Shown: positions 2,702 to 50,238, numbered from the stretch's first letter. The stretch is 64,000 nucleotides of DNA from a virus (IMGVR_UViG_3300001373_000069), one strand, 5' to 3'. The notes: generated by a model from the sequence alone, not told the origin. Made by a program: numbers and translations.

Positions 2702-3031
2702 TTACGATTCATTAACATTATCGTGTACTTCTACCTCTGTGGTATCAGCTTCATTAAAAAGAAATACTCCATTTTCGTCGAAATGACTTAAAACATATTC
2801 TCTTCGAGAGACGCTTAAACCACATGTTTTAGCCTGAATCTGTTCATACACGTCTCGTAAAGTATATTTACCATTCATGTATTGTAACACCTCTTCCTTC
2901 ATATTCATAATTTGAGTATGTTCTGGGTATGGGTTTGAACTCCATTCCTCTGGGTTCTTCGGATTCTGATAAGCTCCACCAACTTCTTCTGCATCAGATC
3001 CATCGGCAGTCTTACCTCTAAAAATAGGCAT
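2702..3031 (-). CDS. hypothetical protein (109 aa)
   Basis: ORF track; starts directly after the stop of helicase exon 2. Confidence 0.5.
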   Translation of the reverse strand: MPIFRGKTADGSDAEEVGGAYQNPKNPEEWSSNPYPEHTQIMNMKEEVLQYMNGKYTLRDVYEQIQAKTCGLSVSRREYVLSHFDENGVFLFNEADTTEVEVHDNVNES

Positions 3032-3033
3032 AG

Positions 3034-3180
3034 TTATCCATTTTTATTGTAAATAATAAGCTCTTTACGAGCGCGTGTCATAGCAACATATAGAGCTTGA
3101 AACCTTTGTTTCCACTCGATAGGCTTAACATCCATAATCTCACCTTCACAAACATACACGTTGTTTAAGGTCATTCCTTG
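3034..3180 (-). CDS. SF1 Dda/RecD-like helicase, 3' exon (motif V tail + motif VI)
   Basis: Minus frame from 3180: QGMTLNNVYVCEGEIMDVKPIEWKQRFQALYVAMTRARKELIIYNKNG*. Joined to exon 1 it gives ...YAYATSLYKA|QGMTLNNVYV (consensus TIHKAQGSTFDNVYV) and YVAMTRARKEL (motif VI). The base preceding the exon on the minus strand is G (omega-G). Confidence 0.7.
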   Translation of the reverse strand, partial: QGMTLNNVYVCEGEIMDVKPIEWKQRFQALYVAMTRARKELIIYNKNG

Positions 3181-4238
3181 CAGTTACCTTATACCTTTCA
3201 ATATAAGCCGGACTATCCCTTAATCTTTAAATTTCCAAAAATACCCAAATGCCTTAATAGTTTTACCATTACAGCATCTTATTATACCAGATTGTCTATT
3301 ACTAGGTAATCCAAGTTTAATAATTGCTAATGCAACAGTGTCGAAAGCCTCGACAAATCCATTTTCATCAGATTGAATCACTCCAGGATATTTAGACATA
3401 CCTTTATTAAAAGGTATTCTACCCTTAAGTCTACTCTTTTGTTCTTCTGTAAATAGTCTTCCACTACTAGCTTTAGATAATTTTAGTTTTGTATCTTTAC
3501 TATGCTTCTTACCTTTCATAGGATGTATAGCACCTGGTTTATTCAACCAGTGACCATTTAAACCAACAGACTCTCTCCAACTATCAATTTGATGCTCGGT
3601 ACGTTTTCTACCTAAAGCATTATTTGATAATTTTAACCTAACTATTGACTTATTGGATTCTGATAATCCTGAAAAGGTGTCACCGCCATCTCCTCCCATA
3701 GTCATATTAGTTAAAGAAAACCCCCACTGAATCAATTGACTGATCCAATATATTTCTAATTCATAAGCATCTTGTTTAGTTTCACAACTATCAAGTTCTT
3801 TTATTAGAGGTTCTAATCCTTTGCTTCTTAATGACTTAATCCAAGAGAGACGTTTATTCCATTTTCTAGTTTCTTTTTCAGCCTCATCCAAGTTCTTTAG
3901 ATGACCGTAAAGTCTTTTTGATAAAGACTTCTTAGTATACCCTACATATCTAACCTCATTAGATATAGGGTCTTCAAGTGTATAAATGTAATATGTTTCC
4001 ATAGTACTATTATAGTAAAAACTAGTTGCATAATCATAGATATAATAAAGATTCCCCCATTATAGTCTCTGAACCTTGAACTCTTTAAAGTTCCTTGGCT
4101 GCGGATTATCCAATTCAACATCTTGTTACCATACCATAATGATTAGTTATGCCGCGTATAGTTCGCACTATACGTTTGGTAATGTTGACTTAAGGAAGTC
4201 CCCGCAATTTAGAGGGTTTTATAAGGCCCATAGTATTA
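3181..4238 (-). other. Group I intron (approx. 1058 nt) interrupting the helicase gene, carrying a GIY-YIG HEG
   Basis: The 5' exon ends in U (..gct) followed by an in-frame stop. The intron's 3' terminal base is G. The intron contains a free-standing HEG ORF and GC-richer structured-looking flanks (4003..4235). Confidence 0.6.
3220..4002 (-). CDS. GIY-YIG homing endonuclease (intron-encoded)
   Basis: N-terminal 'YYIYTLEDPISNEVRYVGYTKKSLSKRLYGH' GIY-YIG motif. Confidence 0.85.
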   Translation of the reverse strand: METYYIYTLEDPISNEVRYVGYTKKSLSKRLYGHLKNLDEAEKETRKWNKRLSWIKSLRSKGLEPLIKELDSCETKQDAYELEIYWISQLIQWGFSLTNMTMGGDGGDTFSGLSESNKSIVRLKLSNNALGRKRTEHQIDSWRESVGLNGHWLNKPGAIHPMKGKKHSKDTKLKLSKASSGRLFTEEQKSRLKGRIPFNKGMSKYPGVIQSDENGFVEAFDTVALAIIKLGLPSNRQSGIIRCCNGKTIKAFGYFWKFKD

Positions 4239-5375
4239 AGCCTTGTACAGCGATGTAGCATAGGCATAATCAAACACAGCAAACGACTGTAAGAATTGAT
4301 TGTAGCGGCTCCATTGACCATATTCGGCGGCCTCCTTGTAACGTTGTCTACGAACTATCTCGTAAGCAGTCTGAGCTTCCTCTGTGTTCATCACGACTGG
4401 TATTCCGGTAGCTGTAGTTGGTACATTATCCAGGGCTAGATATGCACATGGTATACCAAAGGGACCTAACTGATAAGCTATCCCAGTAACTACCGAAATC
4501 TGACCATTATGGATTATAGGAGATCTGTTAACTGAAAATCCTCCTCGAGATATGATTATCTCATTTCTTTCGAATTGATGGGAGTTCTTTCCGTATATTC
4601 TCTCTCTTACCCCAGTATTTAAAAGCTCAATAGTCGAGTTCTTATAGGCTAGTATACGAGTATGATTCTTATCGTTACGATTACTAATTATATCATTAGC
4701 GGCCCGATCAACAGTACAATGAATATCATTCATAAATCTATAACCGGTATCACCTCTCATACAATCCTGTCTACCATACTCTTCTTCGAGAATATACTTA
4801 TTGAACGGTAGATCTTTATTGATGTTATCGATCTCTTGTCTAATCCTGACAGCTAATTCACCGATCGGTCCTTCGAATCGTTGCGAAGTAGTCAACTCAG
4901 CATCTATTCTATCAAATTCTTGTTTTACTGGAGGTAATTGAAATGGGTCGCCAACCACAATTAAGTGAATATCACGAATACTAACCTCGTGCAGAATTGC
5001 GTCAACCAGCGGATCATCTATCATTGATGCCTCATCTATCAAAAGAATCTCAGTACCATCAATTTTCATGTTACCGTTCTTATTTCTTTTAAATGAGATT
5101 TCTTCCGAGGAGTCGTCCATTTGCATGCCAAGTAGTTGTGCTATTGTAAAACTAGTTCCAATAGACTGCTTCAATACTTCTTTAGCAGAGTGTGCTATGG
5201 TTCCACCAACTACTTTCCTTTTCTCGTGCTGCAAAGCCTCTTTTAACATAAAAGTCTTACCACTACCAGGAGGCCCCGATAATACAAAGAACTCGTTTGC
5301 TTGAGCAGGTTTACTTAAGAAATCACGGATTCCTTCGGCAGCTACTTTCTGTTCCTGAGTTAATGTTGATATCAT
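4239..5375 (-). CDS. SF1 Dda/RecD-like DNA helicase, 5' exon
   Basis: Walker A 'GPPGSGKT', motif II 'LLIDEASMI', motif III 'VVGDPFQLPPV'; ORF stops abruptly inside motif V (..FDYAYATSLYKA*). Confidence 0.8.
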
Positions 5376-6445
5376 ACTAATACCATTTTACCTCCACTAT
5401 TAACACATAATTCATCAAGTTCTTTGTTTCTATTTGTGGAAACAGCAAACAAGCGAATATTAGACGGGAAATTAACTATACTCTCCAATCCATCTGTAAT
5501 AAAGATGACTGAATTACTATCATACTTCTTGATATGGTTGTACACGTTTTTCCACCCTTTAGCACTGAGTACCGGAGAAAATTTATAATTGACATACTCT
5601 TTTAGATCCTGTCTTGTATTTAACACAATCTCTTTAACTGGCATATTATTGAACTCCAATATGGTAACTTCAGTAACATCATCGATAAAAGAATCTAACA
5701 GGCTGAGTAGTACAGCTTTAACAATAGAAAAATACTTGGGATTAGTTGACGTAGACCAGGAAACATCCACCATAACCACAACACTGTTGTTCTGGTTCAT
5801 GATGACCTTAGATTCCCGTATGAAGGGTTTCTTCAAGGCTATGTCGGTCTTAAAGGAAGGTAAAGCAAACCTATACTTCCTAATCTTGTGAATGTCACTT
5901 AGTTTAGATAGTCTAGATACTTGAGATACTCTTGTGGGAAATAATTCACCGGCGACATGCTTCATACCATTGTAAAACTTAATGATATCAAGAAGTTCAT
6001 CGGTTAGAACCAGTTCGTTAGCAGGTATACTGGCATCGATCCCTAATAATTCAAGGTGTTCAGGGTTAATCGTAGATATATCATCTTTATAGTTCATCTG
6101 TCTAGATTCCATATCAATAAGAATGGGATTACCAGAAAGTCTACAATATTCTGCACTACGAAGGTTAACCTTAGGGGATATTAGTTTTAGTACGTTGATA
6201 GCAAACTCAATAGGATTATTGGTTTCTACAGAATCAGCATTAACCATATCCATAAGCTCAATAAGAGTTTCTGTGTACGGAGATGGTCTTCCCGTGGCAC
6301 CATAAGCATTCAACATCTTATAGATTCTTAGATAAGCCATGTCTGAAACAATACTAATCGGAATATATCCTTCATACCCCATTCTCTCTGCACTACGCAT
6401 AATATCATATGCAGTAACTATAAAGTTATGAGGAGCTTTCACCAT
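5372..6445 (-). CDS. von Willebrand factor A (vWA) domain protein, partner of MoxR-like ATPase
   Basis: MIDAS-like 'VVMVDVSWSTS'; overlaps and is co-oriented with the upstream AAA gene. Confidence 0.65.
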   Translation of the reverse strand: MVKAPHNFIVTAYDIMRSAERMGYEGYIPISIVSDMAYLRIYKMLNAYGATGRPSPYTETLIELMDMVNADSVETNNPIEFAINVLKLISPKVNLRSAEYCRLSGNPILIDMESRQMNYKDDISTINPEHLELLGIDASIPANELVLTDELLDIIKFYNGMKHVAGELFPTRVSQVSRLSKLSDIHKIRKYRFALPSFKTDIALKKPFIRESKVIMNQNNSVVVMVDVSWSTSTNPKYFSIVKAVLLSLLDSFIDDVTEVTILEFNNMPVKEIVLNTRQDLKEYVNYKFSPVLSAKGWKNVYNHIKKYDSNSVIFITDGLESIVNFPSNIRLFAVSTNRNKELDELCVNSGGKMVLV

Positions 6446-7547
6446 TGATTATAAAGAATAATTGAGACTCGACCTCACACCCAAGTTCACCTACAATTCT
6501 ATACCTTAGCGAATGTTCAAGTGTAGAACATCGGTTTATAAAGGTTAGTATCTCTGTAGTATTCTCTTGATGTTTAGAAGTAACCTCTGTTAGTTTGCTT
6601 ACAATGAAATTGATTTCAGCTAAGGCACTAGTAATAGCCCTAATGGTTGTAAGAGGTTTACTTTCCAAATTATCGGCCCATTTATTAGCTCGATCTAGTA
6701 CAGCTTTTATCCTGAATCTCTCTGTTACAAAAGAACAATACATTAAGACTTCAGTCATATCAGCAGTATCTAACCCATCAACATATTGAAGAACACGTAT
6801 ATCCTTATGAACATCAAGAAGATCAGAAGCATCCTTGATAACCCTTGGGGATACCAAATCAATAGTCCTGGCTGCAGTTTCTGCTAATACATCATAGAGA
6901 AGGCTCTGAGCATCTACTTGGTCTGGTTTAACCACCTTTAGGAAATCTAAATAAGCTTCATGAGAATAATGATCCCACATTACTTTAATTCTAATAGGGA
7001 ATCTTTCCTTATAAAAAGCAGCACTAGAATCATCAATACTGACATCTTCTGGGCTCTTGTTGGTGCATATAATAACAGAACTTATTAACGATTCGGTGAA
7101 CCTACCATTCTGTCTTAATCCGCCTTCGGTTAAGATATCCTTCAATGCAGCAGCAGTAGATGGTCTGGCATCCAGAAATTCTTCAAGAATCAATACTCCA
7201 GGACTACTAAATACACTACGATCAAACGCTGTTTCATATACAGAGGTTTCAGTCAATTTCTTGATGTTTGGTATACCAAGTAAAGCCTCGACTTCCATAT
7301 CTTCATAACCAACAATTGTTGGGGCTGGTATACTAACATAGTCAAGAAAAGCCTTTACAATTTGTGATTTACCAAATCCTCCTGGTCCATACAGTATAAC
7401 ATTCTTACCAGTTGTAGTACCGAGGTATAATGCCTCTATAACCTTGTTCATATTGTAGAAACGTTTACTAAGTGCTTCTTGAATAGATTGTAGTGAATGA
7501 GATAATATTGTCTCTCTTATCGATGTTACAACTTCTGTCCTGTTCAT
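6426..7547 (-). CDS. MoxR-like AAA+ ATPase
   Basis: Walker A 'LYGPGGFGKSQIV'; paired with downstream vWA gene. Confidence 0.65.
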   Translation of the reverse strand: MNRTEVVTSIRETILSHSLQSIQEALSKRFYNMNKVIEALYLGTTTGKNVILYGPGGFGKSQIVKAFLDYVSIPAPTIVGYEDMEVEALLGIPNIKKLTETSVYETAFDRSVFSSPGVLILEEFLDARPSTAAALKDILTEGGLRQNGRFTESLISSVIICTNKSPEDVSIDDSSAAFYKERFPIRIKVMWDHYSHEAYLDFLKVVKPDQVDAQSLLYDVLAETAARTIDLVSPRVIKDASDLLDVHKDIRVLQYVDGLDTADMTEVLMYCSFVTERFRIKAVLDRANKWADNLESKPLTTIRAITSALAEINFIVSKLTEVTSKHQENTTEILTFINRCSTLEHSLRYRIVGELGCEVESQLFFIINGESSS

Positions 7548-14574: not shown

Positions 14575-14783
14575 TTTGTTATCTTAAAGGCTCTTTATCC
14601 TTTAATTCTCATACTTTACCATAGTATGATGTTCGGACTATGTCATCACCCTAAACCAGGGTGTCGCGCGCTCGTGTCGTTTTACTGTCCGTTCTGGACT
14701 CCATACGTTAGTCTCTGCTCCTTCAATGCATTCCTGCAAAGCTTGGATCACGATTACCCTTCAAGGGAGGGCTTTCCGTGAGT

Positions 14784-15428
14784 TCACGCGATTTTAATGG
14801 GGCTTAGGATTTCATCGACTAAAGCCTTTTTTCTTTTTAAGTACCATGATGAATCAGAGTATAATAGACCAACCAGTAATTCAACATCAGTTTTTCTACG
14901 CACTCTAAGTACATATATTTTCCCCTGTTGTCTAACTGTTGAATGAATACCATAACTGTTAAAAAAGTCTTGTAGTGGTATTATTTCAGGTTCAGTAATA
15001 CACAAAGTCATATTCCAATATGGTTTTCCATCTGTAATTTGCTTTGAATAACAACCATCGCCATCTATATAACCCCTGATATAATGAATAAATAATTCTT
15101 CAGGTAAATCTAATAATACCGATTTTACACCAATATTAACTAAATCAGTATAAAGCTCTTTATTATAAGACCTCAATACTACCTTGTTATTAAATCGTTC
15201 CTCATTATTCCACACATAACTATCCTCGCTATATGATATATTAAAGAATGGAAATTCACTTTCAAATCGTTTAATAATTTCCTCATCTTTAATACTTAGT
15301 TTTAACTTACTACAACTGCTATATGCAATTTTAGAGTAATGCAAACTACCATCAGCATGAAAGAAACCTAGAAAATATGCTTTAGCTTCTGTGTCAATAT
15401 TCTTAAATTCATCATTATAAGATACCAT
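14784..15428 (-). CDS. LAGLIDADG homing endonuclease
   Basis: 'YFLGFFHADGS' and 'YIRGYIDGDGC' LAGLIDADG motifs. Confidence 0.85.
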   Translation of the reverse strand: MVSYNDEFKNIDTEAKAYFLGFFHADGSLHYSKIAYSSCSKLKLSIKDEEIIKRFESEFPFFNISYSEDSYVWNNEERFNNKVVLRSYNKELYTDLVNIGVKSVLLDLPEELFIHYIRGYIDGDGCYSKQITDGKPYWNMTLCITEPEIIPLQDFFNSYGIHSTVRQQGKIYVLRVRRKTDVELLVGLLYSDSSWYLKRKKALVDEILSPIKIA

Positions 15429-15790
15429 AACTATTTATTTGGATTAATTGTAAAATCGTACCAAATATATTATAGTTAGAAAAATTGATTGTGTTTACCC
15501 CATTTCCCCAAAGCATCTTTATTCGCACGCTTTGTAGAATACATTTTATTATTTATATAGGCTCTTTATCCTATACTTTCTACAATTTATCTTGTTATAG
15601 TTGTAGAGTAGACTATATCTTTAACTTGCAAACCGCAAGCAGTGTCCCGCTTTCGTGGAGAACTTTATAGCTTTGGCTTTACCCAGTAAGCGTCATCTCT
15701 AGTCGTTCGGCATTTACAATTATTTCTAACTGATTTAGCACGGGATTGTCCTCTTCAGGAGTTTCCCCGTTTAACGGAATTTATACTCAA

Positions 15791-16429
15791 CTATTCTATT
15801 AAATTACCTTCTTTGTTGTATACTACCCAATGAAATCCTTTACATGTTGTACTGTTGATAGAAGATCTGATAATATGTGATGCATGATTTAGTCCAAGAT
15901 CTCTGAAAGCTTGATATGGATTGTCATATGTATGCACTAAATTCCATTTAGAATCATATTTCTCGCACTTTCCATACTTACCAGTTCCTCTTCTATTTGT
16001 ATTACCAAGTTGTGCAGTTTTAGAAGATTCACTAATCTTTTTCCATACTTCTTGAGTATGTAAATGAGACTGATCTCTTAATTTTGCTTTAGCAGACATT
16101 TTGGCTTTAGTGGATTTACCAAACCTAAACCCAGTAGTTCCCAGACCAGGATAATCAGCATTATAACCATTACTAACGGTATCTAACAAATTAACCCAAT
16201 AGTACTCCATTTGTAAACAATATTCTGGGGGATAAGTCTCGAGAATCTCAAATCTAAATGATTCCTCTCCGTACTTGTTCCAAGAACGTTGTAAATGATC
16301 ATTATAATGAGTATTTGATCGTAATTTACGTCTGTGATCTGACCATCTAGAACTAAAATATCGTTGAGCTGACCCTACGTACATTTTTCCATTAACAGTA
16401 TTTGTGATAGTATATACACCTGATTTCAT
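15791..16429 (-). CDS. GIY-YIG homing endonuclease
   Basis: 'SGVYTITNTVNGKMYVGSAQRYFSSRWSDHRR'. Confidence 0.85.
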   Translation of the reverse strand: MKSGVYTITNTVNGKMYVGSAQRYFSSRWSDHRRKLRSNTHYNDHLQRSWNKYGEESFRFEILETYPPEYCLQMEYYWVNLLDTVSNGYNADYPGLGTTGFRFGKSTKAKMSAKAKLRDQSHLHTQEVWKKISESSKTAQLGNTNRRGTGKYGKCEKYDSKWNLVHTYDNPYQAFRDLGLNHASHIIRSSINSTTCKGFHWVVYNKEGNLIE

Positions 16430-18789: not shown

Positions 18790-19019
18790 TTTTTTGCCTT
18801 TTTAATTAAATTATTAAATACTTCTAAGGTATCAGCTAAGCAATCAATTCTTATCTTGGCACCTGTTATCTCAATACGCTTTGCATTTCCAAGTCTATTA
18901 GCACCTTTTATAGCTAATTCAGCCTGCGATAAAGTAAAGACAACTCCTTTACAAGAAGCTGTTTCCGATAACTCATCGTACTCTACAGGAAACCCATTAA
19001 ATGTACCTATCACCATCAT
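18777..19019 (-). CDS. hypothetical protein (80 aa)
   Basis: ORF track. Confidence 0.4.
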   Translation of the reverse strand: MMVIGTFNGFPVEYDELSETASCKGVVFTLSQAELAIKGANRLGNAKRIEITGAKIRIDCLADTLEVFNNLIKKAKKCQK

Positions 19020-29302: not shown

Positions 29303-29971
29303 TTAGTCCGTTAGAGCACCAATGAACACATCTTCAATTGAACAATTATTCATTGCTGAATAGTCTTTACAGTCGACAATATCGAACTTAGCTCCTTCAG
29401 AAGTTAAGTCATCATCAAGCTTCTGCAGAAACCTGCTAGCGTCTGAATTCTGTCCAACCTGAACAAATGTGATACCGACTTCATCACGACCCTGGATACA
29501 TTCGGTAGTCTTCTTAATTACTTCGATAACACCAAATTTATCATCTGGTTCACCATCAGTCAATACAATGATAATCATTGGTTTAACTTTGATACTGAAA
29601 TCAATAGTAAATGGTCGTTTACCAATACCAAAGAAACCACTAGAAGCTTCTTTACGACGATTTAAGAATGGCTGTAAAGCTTTCTTCAATGCATCTGTAA
29701 GGTTAGTTGTACTGCCTGGCTCCTGTGTACGGAATATCTCATCGACTTTAGCAGAAGTAACATTAGTATAATGAGTAATGGCACTATCAAATAAGATTAC
29801 ATCGATACCATCAGAGTCATATGTTTCACACTTCTGAGCAATTACTTTAGCCCATTCTTTTTCTTGGTTCCATCTAGAAAGTCCTCCTGGACAGTCTGTG
29901 AAGTTAGTACTACCACTCTTATCAATTAAGATAACGTAGTCATACTTCGTAAAATCGATTTTACTTTCCAT
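29303..29971 (-). CDS. vWA domain protein (TerY-like)
   Basis: MIDAS 'ILIDKSGSTNF' near N-terminus. Confidence 0.65.
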   Translation of the reverse strand: MESKIDFTKYDYVILIDKSGSTNFTDCPGGLSRWNQEKEWAKVIAQKCETYDSDGIDVILFDSAITHYTNVTSAKVDEIFRTQEPGSTTNLTDALKKALQPFLNRRKEASSGFFGIGKRPFTIDFSIKVKPMIIIVLTDGEPDDKFGVIEVIKKTTECIQGRDEVGITFVQVGQNSDASRFLQKLDDDLTSEGAKFDIVDCKDYSAMNNCSIEDVFIGALTD

Positions 29972-30008
29972 AATAAAAAGAAAGGCTGTATAGTTACCTA
30001 CACAGCCT
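29971..30008 (-). terminator. Rho-independent terminator (AGGCTGTGTAGGTAACTATACAGCCT + U-run) after terD
   Basis: Inverted repeat 29984..30007 and plus-strand A-run 29971..29983. Confidence 0.55.
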
Positions 30009-30035
30009 TTATTTTACATGTTTGTTAGCCCGGTA

Positions 30036-30635
30036 CTAAATGTACAGAGCAGCAATTTCGTTGATGTTACCATTTTTACCTTCACCGATAGCCTGGAATT
30101 TCCATTCACCATCTTTCAGATACAATTTACCCATAACCATTCCGTTGAATGCGGAGTAGTCTTCAGATAGGTCGAATTTCATGATTTCAGCTTTGGTATC
30201 CCAATCATAAACACGCACGAATGCATTGTTTACCTGACCAAAGTTCTGATTTCCACGATCTTTTGCTTGGTAGATGTTAACACAGATAATGATCTGATCA
30301 ACACCGGCAGCCAATTTTGCAAAGTCAACCAAAATGGTTTCATCATCACCATCCCCTGCTCCAGTGAGGTTATCACCTGAATGAGCAATAGCTCCGGCAA
30401 GGATAGCTGGTTTACCGTCAGTTTTCGGAGATCCGAAGTAACAGATATGTCCAGGAGCATCAACCAGTTTACCACCGGTCAGTCCAAGAGCAAATCCATC
30501 AAGGTCATAGGCACTATCAGCACCACTATTAACATCCCAACCTAAACCAATTGCAGCTATTTTCAAGCCAGGGTTAGATTTTGTTAAATCAACACGTTCA
30601 CCTTTAGTAAGGTTCAAAGAAACATTCACTGTCAT
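30036..30635 (-). CDS. terD: TerD-family stress protein
   Basis: 'GERVDLTK..KIAAIGLGWDVNS..DLDGFALGLTGGKLV..HSGDNLTG' TerD domain hallmarks. Confidence 0.8.
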   Translation of the reverse strand: MTVNVSLNLTKGERVDLTKSNPGLKIAAIGLGWDVNSGADSAYDLDGFALGLTGGKLVDAPGHICYFGSPKTDGKPAILAGAIAHSGDNLTGAGDGDDETILVDFAKLAAGVDQIIICVNIYQAKDRGNQNFGQVNNAFVRVYDWDTKAEIMKFDLSEDYSAFNGMVMGKLYLKDGEWKFQAIGEGKNGNINEIAALYI

Positions 30636-30663
30636 AAGACTTTTGTTTTGTTATTTAATATAC

Positions 30664-30688
30664 TAATAAAAAAGACCACTCTATGGTC
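30664..30688 (-). terminator. Rho-independent terminator (GACCATAGAGTGGTC + UUUUUUAUU)
   Basis: Inverted repeat 30674..30688, A-run 30666..30673. Confidence 0.5.
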
Positions 30689-30691
30689 AAA

Positions 30692-31003
30692 TTAACTCAA
30701 GAACTTAGGCTCTTCTAAGAAGAACTCTTTGTACAGGATACTGGCTTGTTCCAATTCTTTTTTCGTAAGATCCCTTGCTAAGGCAGCTTCTCTTATCGGT
30801 TTCCATTCCTGTGAATCTTTTGATGCTACAATAGCTTTCTCAAGCTTTGTTTCACATTCAATAACTTTGGACTGTAGCGCAAAAAGATCAACTTCTGCTT
30901 TAGCCCTTAGATTAGCTTGTGCACGACTCTGTTTAATAGAATCCCAAGCAGCTTCTGTACGTTCCCATACAGTTTGTAGTAACGATTTCTTTTCTGTGCT
31001 CAT
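30692..31003 (-). CDS. hypothetical protein (103 aa)
   Basis: ORF track. Confidence 0.45.
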   Translation of the reverse strand: MSTEKKSLLQTVWERTEAAWDSIKQSRAQANLRAKAEVDLFALQSKVIECETKLEKAIVASKDSQEWKPIREAALARDLTKKELEQASILYKEFFLEEPKFLS

Positions 31004-31278
31004 AAAAATAGCATTAACATTTTCTTAGCTAACCCATATGTGGGCTCAACGTCAAATGGTGAAGGGATAAAAGCTTTTCGACCTTTATTGTGGTTATATG
31101 ATAATATAAATTCCTTACAGTATCTACGCCCAGTATTCATATCCTGAATCTCAACAGTAATTCTACCTTCATCGGGTTCCTTGATCTCTATAATAGGGTC
31201 TCTACCTATTCCATATGAATCAAAAGGATTATACCCCATCATACGCCGGCGCTCATAATCATCATAACTTAACGGCAT
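31000..31278 (-). CDS. hypothetical protein (92 aa)
   Basis: ORF track. Confidence 0.45.
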   Translation of the reverse strand: MPLSYDDYERRRMMGYNPFDSYGIGRDPIIEIKEPDEGRITVEIQDMNTGRRYCKEFILSYNHNKGRKAFIPSPFDVEPTYGLAKKMLMLFL

Positions 31279-31318
31279 AATACCAACTATTTACTTAATA
31301 CTAGGTTACCCCCTATAG

Positions 31319-31463
31319 ATGTACTAGAGGGACTTGAACCCCCGACCCCGCCCTCCCAGGCACGTATACTGTCAGTCTAGTCTCTTGTACTTCAAGACTT
31401 CAAACAACTTATCGTCGACGGTGGTGTTTTAACCACTACTCTAACCAACTGAGCTATAGTACA
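31319..31463 (-). ncRNA. tRNA-like element (145 nt): tRNA-Ile paralogue with ~65-nt insertion between anticodon arm and T-arm, and a non-canonical (6- or 8-nt) anticodon loop
   Basis: Perfect 7-bp acceptor TGTACTA/TAGTACA. D-arm is TAGCTCAGTTGGTTAGAGT. The 24-nt T-arm segment gagggacttgaacccccgaccccg is identical to tRNA-Ile at 36038..36061. Anticodon region is GTGGT-TAAAAC-ACCAC, followed by CGTCGACGATAAG..GGGAGGGC before the T stem. Confidence 0.55.
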
Positions 31464-31467
31464 TTTG

Positions 31468-31540
31468 ATGTGATGGTGGGATTCGAACCCACGGCATACC
31501 CCGGGTTAGGGAGCTGCTCTACCAACTGAGCTACATCACA
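31468..31540 (-). tRNA. tRNA (73 nt), anticodon loop CUAACCC: formal anticodon AAC (Val) with C37; assignment uncertain
   Basis: Acceptor TGTGATG/CATCACA, D-arm TAGCTCAGTTGGTAGAGC, T-arm GTGGGTTCGAATCCCAC. Confidence 0.65.
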
Positions 31541-31550
31541 AACATTATTT

Positions 31551-32429
31551 TTACTTCAAATTGATCATTGGAATACTGCTACCAGTAACCTGAGGTAGAT
31601 GACCATCCCATTGTAGAATTTTCTGATACTCAATAAGAGCAGGAGTAATAGCAGCAGCCTTCAACCTATTAGCTTTAGATTCAGCAGTAGCAGCAATGGT
31701 AAGAGCATCGGCTTCTCCCTGAGCAACAGCAACTTTCTTAGCAGCTTCGGCTTCGGTGGCTCTCAACTCATTCTCACGTTGTTGGGCAATTTGTGTAGCT
31801 TCGATCTTAGAATTAATAGCTTTCTTAACCGATTCCGGTACTTTGATACGACCGATCCAGTAGATTTCTTCAATAATAATTCCAAGAGGCTCACATTGTG
31901 CAATCACATTCTTTTTAATAGTAGACATTAACCCTGTTTTACCTGCTCCATAAATATCAGCTACATCCATAGTGGAAGACGCATTCACAAGAGCATTTCT
32001 AACCATATTCCGCAAATAGATATGAGTAACTTCATCTAATCCTTTCTGATATTTCTGAAAGATTACATCTGCTTTATCCGGTTGTATATGATATGTAATA
32101 CCAAGATCAGCATTTAACTCCAAACCCTGAATATCCTGAAAATTAAAGGACTCATCATTAGGACTACCTTCAGTTGAATCTGATGTCCATACATAGTTCT
32201 GTGTAAACGTTGGAAACGCATATAAAGTGGTATTAATACCAACAGTATAACGCCCTGGAGTCAACTCAACAGTATTAACACCTTTGTTCGAACCGAATTT
32301 GGTTACTTTGACGGCAACCGTACCCGGCTCAACGTCTTTAATTTTACATGACGAAAACATAATTGCCCCAAGTAGGACAAACAAGATAACATTTAATTTA
32401 CTTCTCATTTTAGTACAACTGTTTAACAA
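31551..32429 (-). CDS. SPFH/band-7 (prohibitin/HflK-like) domain lipoprotein
   Basis: Lipobox-like 'MFSSC'; SPFH core and C-terminal coiled region 'AQQRENELRATEAEAAKKVAVAQGEADA'. Confidence 0.65.
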   Translation of the reverse strand: MLNSCTKMRSKLNVILFVLLGAIMFSSCKIKDVEPGTVAVKVTKFGSNKGVNTVELTPGRYTVGINTTLYAFPTFTQNYVWTSDSTEGSPNDESFNFQDIQGLELNADLGITYHIQPDKADVIFQKYQKGLDEVTHIYLRNMVRNALVNASSTMDVADIYGAGKTGLMSTIKKNVIAQCEPLGIIIEEIYWIGRIKVPESVKKAINSKIEATQIAQQRENELRATEAEAAKKVAVAQGEADALTIAATAESKANRLKAAAITPALIEYQKILQWDGHLPQVTGSSIPMINLK

Positions 32430-32607: not shown

Positions 32608-32709
32608 TTTATATTTGTATTAAATGGTTTCAAGGGAGAAAGGTATCGAGACTCATTTCCGCGACGGTCTCTGTTGGATATCTCCGCTTTCGTATAATAC
32701 CTTTCTTTG

Positions 32710-32781
32710 TGGGGATGATGGGATTCGAACCCAAGCCTCCGAGCTTTTAGACCCGGTATTCAACCGCCGAACTGCGCCCCC
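32710..32781 (-). tRNA. tRNA-like gene (72 nt) with apparent 8-nt anticodon loop UCUAAAAG (contains CUA/UAA triplets); anticodon undetermined
   Basis: Acceptor GGGGGCG/CATCCCC (one mismatch), D-arm GTTC-GGCGGTT-GAAT, anticodon stem CCGGG/CTCGG, T-arm TGGGTTCGAATCCCA. Confidence 0.5.
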
Positions 32782-33380: not shown

Positions 33381-34456
33381 AAACGTCTGATTATTAATTA
33401 CTTAGTGGAGATGGCGGGAATCGCCTTAAAAAATAATTTCGCACAGTTCCATATTTATTATTATAATGCTATTATACATTATAAAACATAAAGATATGAA
33501 AACAATTAATTGTACATGTAACTACTGTAATAAATCTGATGAAGAACACATTAACACATAACCAAACAGTAGAATTTTTACAAGAAATAGCAAAATTAAT
33601 AAATACTTAACTTTCGTTAAGGGTTGGACTATATCATCACCCGTTCTGGGTGTCGGATGCTCTAGGCTCACCTTAGTGTCCTTAGTCTCTGAACCTTCCT
33701 CATTCTTCCATGAGGCTCGGCTGCTGATTGACATGTAAATTAAATAGCGTTCAGTATGTACTGCTTCACTTTAATGGGCTCTACATAGTCCCAACTATTT
33801 AATTTATTTAGCTTTCCAGCAATTCTTCCAATTATTTAACTGAGTATTCCTACTCAGTGGGTCCGATTCCTTTTAAACCCGCGTCCAAACATCCGGTAAT
33901 ATTAGTGCTACTTACGTGCGTAGCTGGAATGACGTCCAGCACCTAGGACCAACTGTTTACAGCTGGAGCTCCACCACCTTATTTTGAGAAAACAAGGAAA
34001 ACAACTTGCTGATTTTCTGTTTCTAGGATCACAGCTACCCAATCGCCATATTAAGCTGCAAGAGCCGTAGCGAAAGACATTACGCGAACGTTGTCCTCTA
34101 TAGTTCGATGGACTACCATCATCTTGCACGGACTAATACCCACTGACAATGCTGTCAAAACCAGTCATCCCCGATTATTATTTCATTCGATATAATCCAT
34201 AACAGAGCCACATAATAACTGAAAATTCAACATCTTTTGTTGTAATTAATTCAACGATAGTTATTAGTGTAATACAGAACATAGCAGGATGTTTTATGAA
34301 TACTTCTTTCATTCGATATCAATTTGAATAAACGACATTGTTAGAAAAGATACACCAGTACAAAATGCAATGACTTTGATTGGTTCAGTAGAGGGATATA
34401 GATCAGGGTGCATAATAGAGAATGCTATGAAAAGCATACCCACAACAATACCCCAT

Positions 34457-37171: not shown

Positions 37172-37409
37172 ACAATTCCTCCCATTTAAGACTAGCTATA
37201 AGCCAGAAGTTTAATTTCTCAGGAGATGAATCCCATTTAAACCCATTAGCAAGTAATTCACTAGCATGGGTAATATCCATTTCATTACGTATAAGACAGT
37301 TTGCTTCAAACTTATCAAACAAGTCGTTTTCACGTAAGAATAGTTCAAACATTGCTAAGTCAGCCTTATTAACAAACTTAAGCATTCTAGCTCTATACTC
37401 TTCAAACAT
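37155..37409 (-). CDS. hypothetical protein (84 aa)
   Basis: ORF track. Confidence 0.45.
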   Translation of the reverse strand: MFEEYRARMLKFVNKADLAMFELFLRENDLFDKFEANCLIRNEMDITHASELLANGFKWDSSPEKLNFWLIASLKWEELYASRR

Positions 37410-37430
37410 ATGATTTAATTTATTAATTAG

Positions 37431-37502
37431 TAAGCAGGGAAGGATTCGAACCTTCGCTATTCATTCCACAGCCATGCGTGTCTACCACTGCACCACCTGC
37501 TC
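37431..37502 (-). tRNA. tRNA-like gene or pseudogene (72 nt): good acceptor, D- and T-arms but no base-paired anticodon stem
   Basis: Acceptor GAGCAGG/CCTGCTT, T-arm GAAGGTTCGAATCCTTC. Positions 27-43 (CATGGCTGTGGAATGAA) have no complementary 5-mers. Confidence 0.4.
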
Positions 37503-37593
37503 ATGTACCCCACCGAGTCAGTATCCTTCTAAGGGTGGGGTCTCTTGTGTAATTGCGTATTCAGATGTATTTATCTTAAGGCTATCATTTCTT

Positions 37594-37686
37594 AGGTAGT
37601 TGCTCTATCACTGAGCTACACGGCCATTTGTGTATTATATTTAGAGGCCGTGACGGGACTCAAACCCGCGACCGACTACTTAAAAA
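37594..37686 (-). ncRNA. Permuted or split tRNA-Lys(UUU)-like locus: 3' half (loop UUUUUAA, anticodon 3' stem, T-arm, acceptor 3' strand) lies upstream of a 20-nt spacer and the 5' half (acceptor 5' strand, D-arm, anticodon 5' stem)
   Basis: Minus strand 5'->3': ..TTTTTAA-GTAGT-CGGTC-GCGGGTTTGAGTCCCGT-CACGGCC-[TCTAAATATAATACACAAAT]-GGCCGTG-TA-GCTCAGTGATAGAGC-A-ACTAC-C.. Acceptor halves are perfectly complementary (GGCCGTG/CACGGCC) and anticodon stem halves ACTAC/GTAGT are perfectly complementary, but they are in the reverse gene order. Confidence 0.5.
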
Positions 37687-37840
37687 CATACTTATGTATA
37701 TTTTTGTAGTTAGACACCTGACGCTTTATTACCGATAAAGGTCAAGCTAAGTCTTTTGGATCAACACTAAGTCTAATTTGCTGCTGTGGAGCGTCAATTA
37801 AGGCTAAGGTTAAGACTAAAGCTCGAACCAATAATATCGT

Positions 37841-38647
37841 TTAACCTTTTAGGATGAACCCAAAGATTTTATCTGCAGTTAACGTTGATTTAACCACTTC
37901 ACACTCGTTGCACTCTTTCAAGGCTTGAGTTACAGCAATGATCAAATCCGAACGGCGTTTCATTGCAGCTGCACGCTGGCGGTGAGACCATTGACCAGAA
38001 AACTTCTGAATAGTATAATCACCAATTTCGCGAACAACAGTTTTGAAAGCTGTTTTTGGTTGATATCCGGCGGGTAAAGTTTTCCCAACTAAGTTAGGAT
38101 CTTCTAGGATATATTCATTCTTATCAGTTGTGCGTGATATACCTGCAACCATTGGAGTTTCCCATACCTTTCGATCGGCGTACTCATCAAAGGCAGTTTC
38201 AGCCCATACTTCAGAATCAGAACGAACTGGGATTACAGAAAGCATTGCTTCCATATCACCCATATCTTTGGATTCCAATAATGATTTCAACCGTAACAAT
38301 TCCAATGAAGTGAATTCGCCCCAAGAATCGCCACCGACAACCAATTCAGCTTTCGCTAAACCCATTGCGTTAGTCTTTTCTTGTGAGAACAATGCCTCAA
38401 TAAACTGTCCCGACTCTTTAATGAAGTAGTCGACCTTCTCATCAACAGTAGTAATTACTTTCACAAAACTACGTTTGCTTGGCTCATCAGCAGTACCTTC
38501 CTTTGCAGTATAGGTATTCTTTTCACCAAGGAATGCACCTTGTGATTTGTTGTAAAACACTGTATGGTCAGTGACCATATGTTTGAATTTTGCCCTTAAT
38601 GCATCTGTTAGGGCTAACAGTACGTTTAGTTTAGTACCGATTTTCAT
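37841..38647 (-). CDS. hypothetical protein (268 aa)
   Basis: ORF track. Confidence 0.5.
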   Translation of the reverse strand: MKIGTKLNVLLALTDALRAKFKHMVTDHTVFYNKSQGAFLGEKNTYTAKEGTADEPSKRSFVKVITTVDEKVDYFIKESGQFIEALFSQEKTNAMGLAKAELVVGGDSWGEFTSLELLRLKSLLESKDMGDMEAMLSVIPVRSDSEVWAETAFDEYADRKVWETPMVAGISRTTDKNEYILEDPNLVGKTLPAGYQPKTAFKTVVREIGDYTIQKFSGQWSHRQRAAAMKRRSDLIIAVTQALKECNECEVVKSTLTADKIFGFILKG

Positions 38648-42934: not shown

Positions 42935-43021
42935 CGGAGACGGAGAGATTCGAACTCCCGGACCCTGTTACGGGCCTCCGGTTTAGCATACCGGTGGTTT
43001 AAGCCACTCACCCACATCTCC
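42935..43021 (-). tRNA. tRNA-Ser (GCT), type II
   Basis: Acceptor GGAGATG/CGTCTCC, anticodon stem CCGGT/ACCGG, loop AUGCUAA, long variable arm. Confidence 0.8.
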
Positions 43022-43026
43022 ATTAG

Positions 43027-43098
43027 AGGGCCCGGCTGGATTTGAACCAGCGACATCCACTTTAACAGAGTGGCGCTCTACCGCTGAGCTACAAGCCC
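43027..43098 (-). tRNA. tRNA-Asn (GTT)
   Basis: Acceptor GGGCTTG/CGGGCCC, anticodon stem CCACT/AGTGG, loop CUGUUAA. Confidence 0.85.
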
Positions 43099-48942: not shown

Positions 48943-50238
48943 AGGCGCACTTCAACAAGTAACTATTAGGTCGACACGAAAAAAGCAAATCCCAAAAGGA
49001 CCAACTAACCAACGCAACTCACTCATCATACCAATACTAACCTTAAGGTGATTGATACAGACAGCAAGTAAATGTTTTACACCCTCACCCATAACCATAC
49101 TTAGTGCTCTGAGCATCCCTAAGGACTCTAAACTAAGTGATCCATACTCACAATGGTATGATTAATTATGGTATTACTCCCGGTTCTTTAACCCTAAGGC
49201 CCGATTTGTAATAATCATTTACATGAGTTCAGGTGATCTGTGCTGGTACTAGGAGACGACTCCCCATACAGACAGCAATCAAATATCGTAGACTCTCGTA
49301 GCGAGAGAATAATGTGTGTAGTCATTGGCACTCACTAGTACGTCGACCCAACAGCATCAGAGAATCACTCCTCTAACACCGTGTGGATCAACTACTAACA
49401 CATCGCATCGGATGCATTAATACTATAACATTTAAAAGTATGAGCCCAAATAAAAAAGCCAACCACCCAATTGCGCGAGGGTAGCTGGCTCAAAAACAAT
49501 TAATCAATTAACCAAAAATCACACTATGAAGACTCCAACTCTTGACAAAGCTGTACCGTTTGATTCACTCCGGACCGGTTGTCCGTGTCATGGTTAGTTT
49601 TATATTATCCTTACCAATGATGTCGTCACACACCATTACTCCTGCTCAAGAGTATTCAAAGAATAATACGCCGTGGTATACGCTACCGATCTAATCCCAC
49701 TAACTCTATTAATAGAGAAGGAGATATGTCGTGTGCTTGTATTTCGGTCATGTCAATGGTATTCCTGCCCATTAAGCATATGTTACAACGTTGGAATGTC
49801 TTATTAGGACTCGTTGTTGGTTATGGCATGTCGTAGTCTACCATACTACCACACGTTTACCTGATTTTATAGTCTGCACTAACTTGTTCTTATCCAAGCG
49901 ATTAGGATTCCATAATGATAGTATTGATCGCATTTACTAACTATCATAAGAACACAGTAGCCCCACAGGTTTGTCACGGTTTATGATCCGTAAAGTTGAG
50001 GTTCCGCCACCTCCGTCCTACCATTAAGTTATATCTAACGGTAGCAAACTTATCTCGACGTTTTATTTGTGTATCCGAGAATGCTTGAACTGGGTCATCT
50101 AGTTAGGATACCCGTTGTTCAGTAATCTTTATATGATAGCAATAGCCTCATTACAATGATTAGTAATTAATAAAATTAGAACTCAAGAAAGGGGACTACA
50201 CGAATGCAATCCCCTATCAAAGTCTTTGTGCCCGGATC

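Follow-up and report, generated by a model that had tools for sequence, protein, structure and literature searches.

Layout and conservation of the element

We analysed a stretch of viral DNA of 64,000 nucleotides (nt) from IMGVR_UViG_3300001373_000069, called here the window, with positions counted from its first letter, in which the minus strand at 37594-37686 carries the parts of a transfer RNA (tRNA) in reversed order. A sequence-only reading had taken this element for a tRNA-Lys(UUU)-like gene split into permuted halves around a 20-nt spacer, with complementary acceptor and inner-stem strands, and direct reading of the minus strand bears out the halves, the spacer and the complementarity. 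From 37679 to 37596 come, in order, the 5' strand of an inner stem, the variable loop, the T arm, the acceptor 3' strand, the spacer, the acceptor 5' strand, the D arm and the inner stem 3' strand; the two acceptor strands are complementary without a mismatch, and so are the two inner-stem strands. The parts are given below, with the counts of compensatory pairs found in the alignment of 63 sequences described further on.

37675-37679, minus strand: inner stem 5' strand GUAGU, in place of the 3' strand of a tRNA anticodon stem; 5 of 5 pairs compensatory (n = 63), helix recovered by RNAalifold
37670-37674, minus strand: variable loop CGGUC, its final base being C48; covariation of 15:48
37653-37669, minus strand: T arm GCGGG-UUUGAGU-CCCGU, in which U56 replaces C56; 4 of 5 pairs compensatory
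37646-37652, minus strand: acceptor stem 3' strand CACGGCC; 7 of 7 pairs compensatory, helix recovered by RNAalifold
37626-37645, minus strand: acceptor loop or spacer of 20 nt, UCUAAAUAUAAUACACAAAU, beginning U73-C-U-A and ending ..AAAU
37619-37625, minus strand: acceptor stem 5' strand GGCCGUG; compensatory pairs and RNAalifold
37601-37618, minus strand: U8 A9, D arm GCUC-AGUGAUA-GAGC and A26; D-stem pairs compensatory, G18 A19 of the D loop matching U56
37596-37600, minus strand: inner stem 3' strand ACUAC; compensatory pairs and RNAalifold

ARAGORN places 15 tRNAs in the window, none of them at the element, and no transfer-messenger RNA (tmRNA); neither an ARAGORN nor an Rfam tRNA match overlaps 37594-37686, where no contiguous cloverleaf is recognised. 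A covariance model built from relatives of the element, R1, scores it at 76.3 bits, against 34.4 bits for the next site in the 64-kb window, which is the junction of adjoining ordinary tRNA-Asn and tRNA-Ser genes (42990-43061). The arrangement is therefore far beyond chance, and the window holds a single copy of the element, well apart from the false positives that tRNA junctions produce.

Relatives were sought as loci around homologues of the protein encoded next to the element, which carries the DUF7873 domain. A DUF7873 alignment was used as the query (a single DUF7873 protein retrieved none), and of the loci that came from a genome collection most are on contigs binned with Bacteroidota. 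By a strict scan, 88 of the 107 DUF7873 loci with enough downstream sequence contain the element, and in 84 of these 88 the T arm begins 136-223 nt past the DUF7873 stop codon, a strict synteny; the R1 model adds nine further loci, bringing the total to about 97 of 107. Because scanning by regular expression is noisy in AT-rich DNA (120 matches in shuffles of 1.4 Mb), only GC-rich matches at the syntenic position were counted, with RNAalifold and the covariance model as a cross-check. Among the five closest loci the entire 430-nt intergenic region is conserved, with spacers of 20, 26, 64, 145 and 203 nt. Searches at the level of DNA were less productive: a near-identical search of the INPHARED phages gave no match and a distant one only a tRNA-Met fragment, patterns drawn from the T and D arms pulled mainly ordinary tRNAs or neighbouring tRNA pairs from viral contigs, and a pattern drawn from the upstream leader found only two viral and two metagenome loci.

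For covariation we used a gapless alignment of 63 distinct cores, whose rows were chosen for perfect acceptor and inner stems. Twenty of the 21 pairs are changed on both sides (442 cells), and the covariation score is 0.90, as compared with 0.21 in shuffles, none of 500 of which reached the observed value, and about 0.1 in slid controls. This choice of rows introduces some circularity into the paired percentage, but none into the variety of pair types seen at one fixed syntenic position. When 25 contiguous sequences are aligned with MAFFT without constraints, RNAalifold arrives at the same four helices, in which 19 of 20 pairs show compensation. The tertiary contacts expected of a tRNA vary in concert as well. 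Pair 15:48 is GC in 35 sequences, AU in 22, UA in two, CG in one and something else in three, and pair 19:56 is G-C in 54 and A-U in nine, without exception. In all 63, a T loop with U56, as in the clade of the window, goes with G18 A19 in the D loop, and one with C56 goes with G18 G19. Acceptor pair 3:70 is CG in 38, GC in 15, UA in nine and AU in one, and never G:U. The permuted order is thus real, conserved and under selection.

Flanking structures, spacer and companion tRNA

Around the core, the same strand carries the following features.

37841-38647, minus strand: DUF7873 gene (Pfam PF25283, E 1.2e-36), its stop codon about 170 nt upstream of the T arm
37722-37840, minus strand: conserved leader from the DUF7873 stop codon to helix P1, with ARYYUU-like hexamer repeats and a possible long imperfect hairpin
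37715-37721, minus strand: helix P1 5' strand UCAGGUG; RNAalifold, compensatory changes
37682-37705, minus strand: 5' hairpin AAAAAUAUAC-AUAA-GUAUGUUUUU between P1 and the inner stem; minimum-free-energy fold
37571-37585, minus strand: conserved motif AUAGCCUUAAGAUAA on the 3' strand of the long stem; consensus A-N-A-G-C-N-U-Y-A-G-C-N-U-R-A
37561-37567, minus strand: helix P1 3' strand CAUCUGA, followed by conserved AA; RNAalifold
37507-37541, minus strand: downstream hairpin ACCCCACCC / CGGUGGGGU with a purine-rich loop (..GAAGGAUACUGA..); 8 of 11 pairs compensatory by RNAalifold, loop invariant within the clade
37430-37502, minus strand: companion tRNA-like gene, constant in its distance from the element, with the non-canonical loop GCUGUGG in the window

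The bases flanking the inner stem run on into a long irregular stem that the covarying helix P1 closes. P1 can be seen by eye in every clade, mostly as CAG.../...CUG followed by AA, and a counterpart of the 5' hairpin, made of an A-run and a U-run of other sequence, is present in L004, L006, L078 and L082. The 120-nt leader is nearly invariant even in relatives whose flanking protein shares only 60-86% identity, and RNAalifold weakly supports an outer stem within it. On the 3' strand, the conserved motif can be read in a frame GCN-UYA-NNN-stop, which gives ALA-stop, ASA-stop, ALV-stop and similar peptides in 31 of 55 sequences and A-stop in 11, the window having ALR-stop; the pattern of its variation argues against a coding role. 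A tag open reading frame (ORF) extending through the linker and the downstream hairpin (GCA AUU ... UGA in the window) was also considered and rejected, as the frame is not kept in L003 or L004.

The upstream 'GCGTCAGG..ACTAC' and the hairpin at 37705-37682 are present as the sequence-only reading had them, while its view of the upstream ACTAC as a degenerate partner of the tRNA half finds no echo in the relatives, where that ACTAC is not conserved. On the RNA, ACUAC/CUAC at 37706-37710 (minus strand) can pair with the inner-stem GUAGU at 37675-37679 in the window and in L003 only. Such pairing lengthens the 5' hairpin, competes with the tRNA-like fold and corresponds to the minimum-free-energy structure; it could be fortuitous or represent an alternative conformation.

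Among relatives the spacer ranges from 17 to more than 300 nt, and its ends are those of a tRNA gene. In the 63 cores, position 74 is C throughout, position 75 is U or A in 57, position 76 is A in 57, and A stands at -2 in 59. The 236 ordinary tRNA genes of the related loci have C74 in 229 cases and A or U at position 75 in 217, and the window's 15 tRNAs are alike. These phages' tRNA genes thus encode N73-C74-(A/U)75-A76 and not CCA, with C74 in 97% and C75 almost never, and an unusual 3'-end maturation or CCA repair step is therefore implied. The tRNA-like leader and trailer, the 7-bp acceptor stem and the free length of the spacer suggest that the acceptor loop is handled like a pre-tRNA junction, with RNase P cleaving at G37625 and the 3' end being trimmed and completed with CCA at U37645. 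The spacer would in this way be removed, probably by RNase P together with the enzymes of tRNA 3'-end formation, and the two resulting pieces of RNA would stay attached through the acceptor stem, inner stem and P1. In Mycobacterium smegmatis YrlA, a Y RNA discussed below, a 7-bp stem makes an RNase P substrate, and CCA is added (PMC4201824). Two distant relatives, L003 (about 5072-5216) and L078 (about 6768-6924), have a common acceptor-loop insert of about 100 nt, ..AAGGGAAAGUAU..GAAGACUAGUUAAUU..UAUGAUACCA..GGGU..CCC.., for which an Rfam scan of L003 returned no family; the insert could be structured or mobile.

The companion tRNA lies 80-95 nt past the inner stem in most loci with an ARAGORN call. 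Its body is kept while its anticodon differs among close relatives (L113-L139, L152-L162, L171-L199, L181-L193). One clade, uniform in its anticodon stems, has TGT, AGT, GCA, AAT and TGCA as anticodons; two other clades have GAT, GCA, TGT and CCA, and TTC, TTT, GTT and CTT, respectively, and CTA suppressors occur too. The clade of the window has the loop GCU(G/A)UGG, with C33 and G37. Pairing of an AUAGCY motif with the companion loop fits this clade; it was rejected, the L181-L193 clade keeping the motif despite its differing anticodons.

Likeness to YrlA RNAs and rival explanations

A scan of 37300-37900 against all Rfam families at a permissive threshold returned a sole notable match other than tRNA, to YrlA (RF02553, 'Y RNA-like'), at 37572-37696 on the minus strand over the full model (45.9 bits, E 4.4e-9). 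YrlA is also matched in the relatives L007 (35 bits), L140 (42 bits) and L092 (39 bits). YrlA RNAs are bacterial and phage partners of Ro60/Rsr, to which they bind in vivo, and are modified by TruB/DusA. In them the order T arm, acceptor-like stem-loop, D arm is the normal one (PMC4201824). Phage Ro60 homologues with Y-like RNAs, and a complex of Ro60, Yrl and the host polynucleotide phosphorylase (PNPase), have been described (PMC4201824; PMC12135203; PMC7824862). Chen et al. (2014) cautioned that two neighbouring tRNAs can imitate the YrlA pattern (PMC4201824), and comparative evidence is therefore needed; the same authors likewise used covariation of 15:48 for YrlA.

The reading that we favour, and hold to be probable with a good deal of room for doubt, is that the element forms the central part of a YrlA-type non-coding RNA conserved among phages, a tRNA mimic built like the Y RNAs that partner Ro60. 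The T arm, the closed acceptor stem and the D arm would form a tRNA-like L shape atop the long irregular stem made of the inner stem, internal loops and P1. With YrlA of M. smegmatis and of mycobacteriophage (PMC4201824) the element shares the T arm, acceptor-like stem-loop and D arm on a stem built from 5' and 3' parts, a variable loop, the covarying 15:48 Levitt pair, an acceptor stem of 7 bp (as in M. smegmatis) and, in 27 related loci, linkage with the gene of a Ro60-fold protein. It differs from YrlA in having the closing helix P1, the 5' hairpin and the conserved AGCNUYAGCNU motif, as well as an acceptor loop with the leader and trailer signals of tRNA genes and inserts of up to 300 nt. 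Its protein is Ro-like of the DUF2828 type and not Pfam TROVE, its invariant neighbour is DUF7873, a hairpin and a tRNA of variable anticodon come after the element, and its hosts are huge Bacteroidota phages.

The candidate protein partner is encoded elsewhere in the window:

23297-24883, minus strand: Ro60-like protein (TROVE/HEAT ring and vWA), DUF2828/DUF7788, from Pfam and AlphaFold/Foldseek

Its AlphaFold model has a pLDDT (predicted local distance difference test) of 82, and Foldseek aligns it over its full length with E values of 2e-8 to 1e-6 and a template modelling (TM) score of about 0.5, the top matches being Ro60 (2i91, 1yvr, 1yvp), the Ro60 of a Thermus phage (9kop) and Deinococcus radiodurans Rsr (2nvo). 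The protein has no match among PDB sequences, so that its link to Ro60 comes from the fold search alone; it also matches phrog_850, annotated 'RNA-binding protein', and mycobacteriophage members of its family are annotated 'Ro-like RNA binding protein'. In 27 loci a full-length homologue lies directly upstream of DUF7873, giving the recurrent order Ro-like gene, DUF7873, RNA, hairpin, tRNA. A further pairing comes from Mycobacterium phage BigCheese (L200), in which R1 matches positions 3021-3089 at 34.7 bits, about 140 nt past the gene of a DUF2828-type 'Ro-like RNA binding protein'. The BigCheese RNA is unannotated and of YrlA type, made up of a T arm, an acceptor stem closed by a 5-nt loop, and a D arm. 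As for the DUF7873 protein, it shares 43% identity with a Prevotella Lak megaphage protein and has no known fold match. A literature search on DUF2828 yielded no useful result.

By analogy with the Rsr/Y RNA/PNPase complex and with the Ro60-Yrl system of Thermus phage phiLo, the phage Ro60-like protein, and possibly the DUF7873 protein too, would bind the RNA, which would guide RNA decay or RNA quality control in the course of infection. The phiLo system (PMC12135203; PDB 9KOP) likewise combines a phage Ro60-fold protein with phage Y-like RNAs, Yrl1 and Yrl2; its Ro60 is the second-best structural match of the window protein, and its proposed role is the hijacking of host PNPase (PMC12135203). 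It differs in that its Yrl RNAs are of stem-bulge-stem form with CGAA, no tRNA-like domain being mentioned (PMC12135203), and in that they lie directly upstream of the Ro60 gene.

Several observations weigh against the YrlA-type reading. The match of 45.9 bits is below the Rfam gathering cut-off of 69, and in most clades Rfam gives no YrlA match at all. The 5' strand of the terminal stem in the window (37721-37680) lacks the Ro-binding motif GNCGAAN0-1G of YrlA; CGAA stands between P1 and the inner stem in some relatives only, and what is found family-wide instead is CAG/CUG-AA at P1 and AGCNUYAGCNU. The Ro-like gene of the window is on the same strand as the RNA at a distance of 12.7 kb, such a gene falls within the 2.5 kb fetched upstream in only 27 of about 107 loci, and the constant adjacent gene is DUF7873 and not the Ro-like one. 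Rfam YrlA is found beside the Ro-like genes of neither BigCheese (E <= 0.01) nor the Felix-like phage nataliec. Finally, the Lak phages proper, including Lak-A1, have DUF7873 with no element detected downstream by R1 or the scans, and Lak-A1 has no YrlA match. Because the Rfam score is below the cut-off and the GNCGAA motif is absent, the best-supported description is a divergent YrlA variant that 'works like YrlA', and not a proven member of the family.

Y RNAs that mimic tRNAs are known from bacteria and from a few phages. The present family, which the Rfam YrlA model misses at threshold, comprises about 100 independent contigs of huge phages, mostly binned with Bacteroidota, and is rich in covariation. 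It brings new features that can be tested: an acceptor loop resembling a pre-tRNA junction and accepting large inserts, the invariant neighbour DUF7873, a DUF2828 family with the Ro60 fold that sequence search does not link to Ro60, and a fixed downstream tRNA with a changing anticodon. The family thus makes a natural variant series for asking what benefit a Ro/Y RNA particle brings to phages. For annotators it carries a caution as well, since 'permuted tRNA halves' in a phage tRNA array can be Y-like RNAs.

The main rival to a YrlA-type RNA is a tRNA mimic that acts independently of Ro, with DUF7873 or alone, for example as a decoy or sponge for host anticodon nucleases or modification enzymes, or as a module through which RNase P processes or stabilises the transcript of its tRNA. 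We regard this as unlikely, yet deserving of serious attention: DUF7873 is the invariant neighbour and the Ro-like gene is not, the YrlA Ro-binding motif is missing, the element sits inside an array of tRNA genes and has the leader and trailer signals of such genes, and the hairpin and tRNA that always come after it, the anticodon changing among close relatives, would fit an arms race over tRNAs. It leaves unexplained, however, why the cluster of Ro-like gene, DUF7873 and RNA recurs in 27 loci and why an unrelated mycobacteriophage pairs the same type of RNA with the same protein family, with no DUF7873 in the stretch examined; the long conserved stem, P1 and the conserved single-stranded motif are also more than would be required of an RNase P substrate or a simple decoy. 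A minimal two-piece, permuted tmRNA-like RNA, whose spacer would be excised, CCA added and the product charged, and whose 3' piece would offer the frame GCN-UUA-GCN-stop ('Ala-Leu-Ala') for ribosome rescue or for interference with host trans-translation, seems to us improbable. The order of its parts is that of a permuted tmRNA gene, with T arm, acceptor 3' strand, intervening segment, acceptor 5' strand and a helix for the anticodon stem (PMC11915505), and in the two-piece tmRNAs of Alpha- and Betaproteobacteria, cyanobacteria and mitochondria, too, a permuted tRNA-like domain and a helix for the anticodon stem are followed by a short conserved single-stranded segment, the intervening segment being cut out by tRNA processing enzymes. 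Tag-like traits can be pointed to in the A-rich stretch before the motif, the free third position of GCN and the alternation of UAA and UGA at the stop, and tmRNA forms are known that have only the tRNA-like domain or a tag of two amino acids. Rfam gives weak matches to beta_tmRNA (15.1 bits) and tmRNA_permuted (11.1 bits), and to tmRNA at 23 bits in L098, whereas the cut-offs of the first two are 84 and 47, and ARAGORN, as said, calls no tmRNA. Pair 3:70 is never G:U, so alanine identity is absent; the D arm is full and canonical, unlike that of tmRNA; and there are no pseudoknots. The would-be tag frame, of at most 1-6 codons, is inconsistent: second codon positions vary (UUA/UCA/UAA; AUA/AAA/ACA), the last 'codon' varies as well (A, V, T, R, N, F, S, D), an in-frame stop is missing from five sequences, and two AGCNU repeats are an equally good reading of the motif. 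A bolder form of the idea, to which we likewise give little credence, is a phage-made analogue of permuted tmRNA that has no alanine identity, is possibly chargeable and carries its frame in a single-stranded internal loop, and that would rescue or sabotage stalled ribosomes, perhaps together with the adjacent tRNA of hypervariable anticodon.

The tRNA-Lys(UUU) identity proposed from the sequence fares worse, and that a genuine circularly permuted gene has its ends joined as an anticodon loop and its spacer removed to give a decoding tRNA is very doubtful. The element resembles the circularly permuted tRNA genes of Cyanidioschyzon merolae, some green algae and Thermofilum in that the 3' half comes before the 5' one, with the acceptor ends linked by a segment that tRNA end-processing enzymes could remove; the flanks of this segment look like the leader and trailer of a tRNA, and the acceptor and inner-stem strands of the element are perfectly complementary. 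The loop that had been proposed, CUUUUAA, can be had only by dropping one U, since five U precede the AA. More generally, the bases beside the inner stem are not conserved, with no U33, no UUU and no purine at 37 kept across the 63 sequences, so that no anticodon loop of conserved bases exists; maturation of the algal or archaeal kind is not supported either, as the flanks lack a bulge-helix-bulge context and pair into the long conserved stem closed by P1. A conserved strand of 25-40 nt after the inner stem would also have to be removed. The splicing endonuclease that acts on bulge-helix-bulge junctions, by which Cyanidioschyzon and archaea mature their permuted tRNAs, is not known from bacteria, and the host here is bacterial or phage. 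We detected no RtcB or RNA ligase among the scanned ORFs of the window, and a literature search found no report of a permuted tRNA gene in a bacteriophage. That the element is a functionless, decayed remnant of two tandem tRNA genes, the scenario that the sequence-only reading had itself named for tandem tRNA-Lys genes, or else an assembly artefact, is scarcely credible. Junctions of adjacent tRNAs do imitate the pattern weakly, as at 42990-43061 (34 bits) and in L002, and are the false positives of which Chen et al. warn (PMC4201824). The comparative data refute the remnant: about 97 independent contigs, drawn from many samples, carry this arrangement in one and the same syntenic place, with compensatory changes in four helices and two tertiary pairs, and neither the upstream ACTAC nor the downstream side is a degenerate half of a tRNA; both belong to conserved structure that is not tRNA.

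Other features of the window and its relatives

The Ro60-like gene of the window has stress and nicotinamide adenine dinucleotide (NAD) salvage genes as neighbours. A Ter-type stress cluster at 26895-32429 (minus strand), a few kb from it, encodes TerC, a ComF-like phosphoribosyltransferase, HAD, vWA, TerD and Band 7/SPFH proteins. The NAD salvage cluster consists of a nicotinamide phosphoribosyltransferase split in two (21045-22447, minus strand; N-terminal domain 21719-22447, C-terminal part 21045-21674), an ORF resembling nicotinamide mononucleotide (NMN) adenylyltransferase (19945-21048) and a NUDIX ORF (18997-19527).

Other structured RNAs in the window include a Hatchet self-cleaving ribozyme at 49859-49997 on the minus strand (77.2 bits, Rfam cut-off 51) and four group I introns above the Rfam threshold (4022-4248, 14608-14867, 15580-15842 and 33605-33884, all on the minus strand), two of which are adjoined by ORFs for LAGLIDADG (14784-15428) and GIY-YIG (15791-16429) endonucleases. 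Two tRNA-like genes are odd: that at 32709-32781 (minus strand) has a 2-nt 'anticodon' (aa) according to ARAGORN, and that at 31319-31463 (minus strand) is an Rfam tRNA match spread over 145 nt with a long insert. Among the relatives, L086 carries at 5275-6813 (minus strand), about 1.5 kb from the element, a Cas9-like ORF (Pfam Cas9_a and a weak HNH_4) of 1075 amino acids that runs off the end of the locus.

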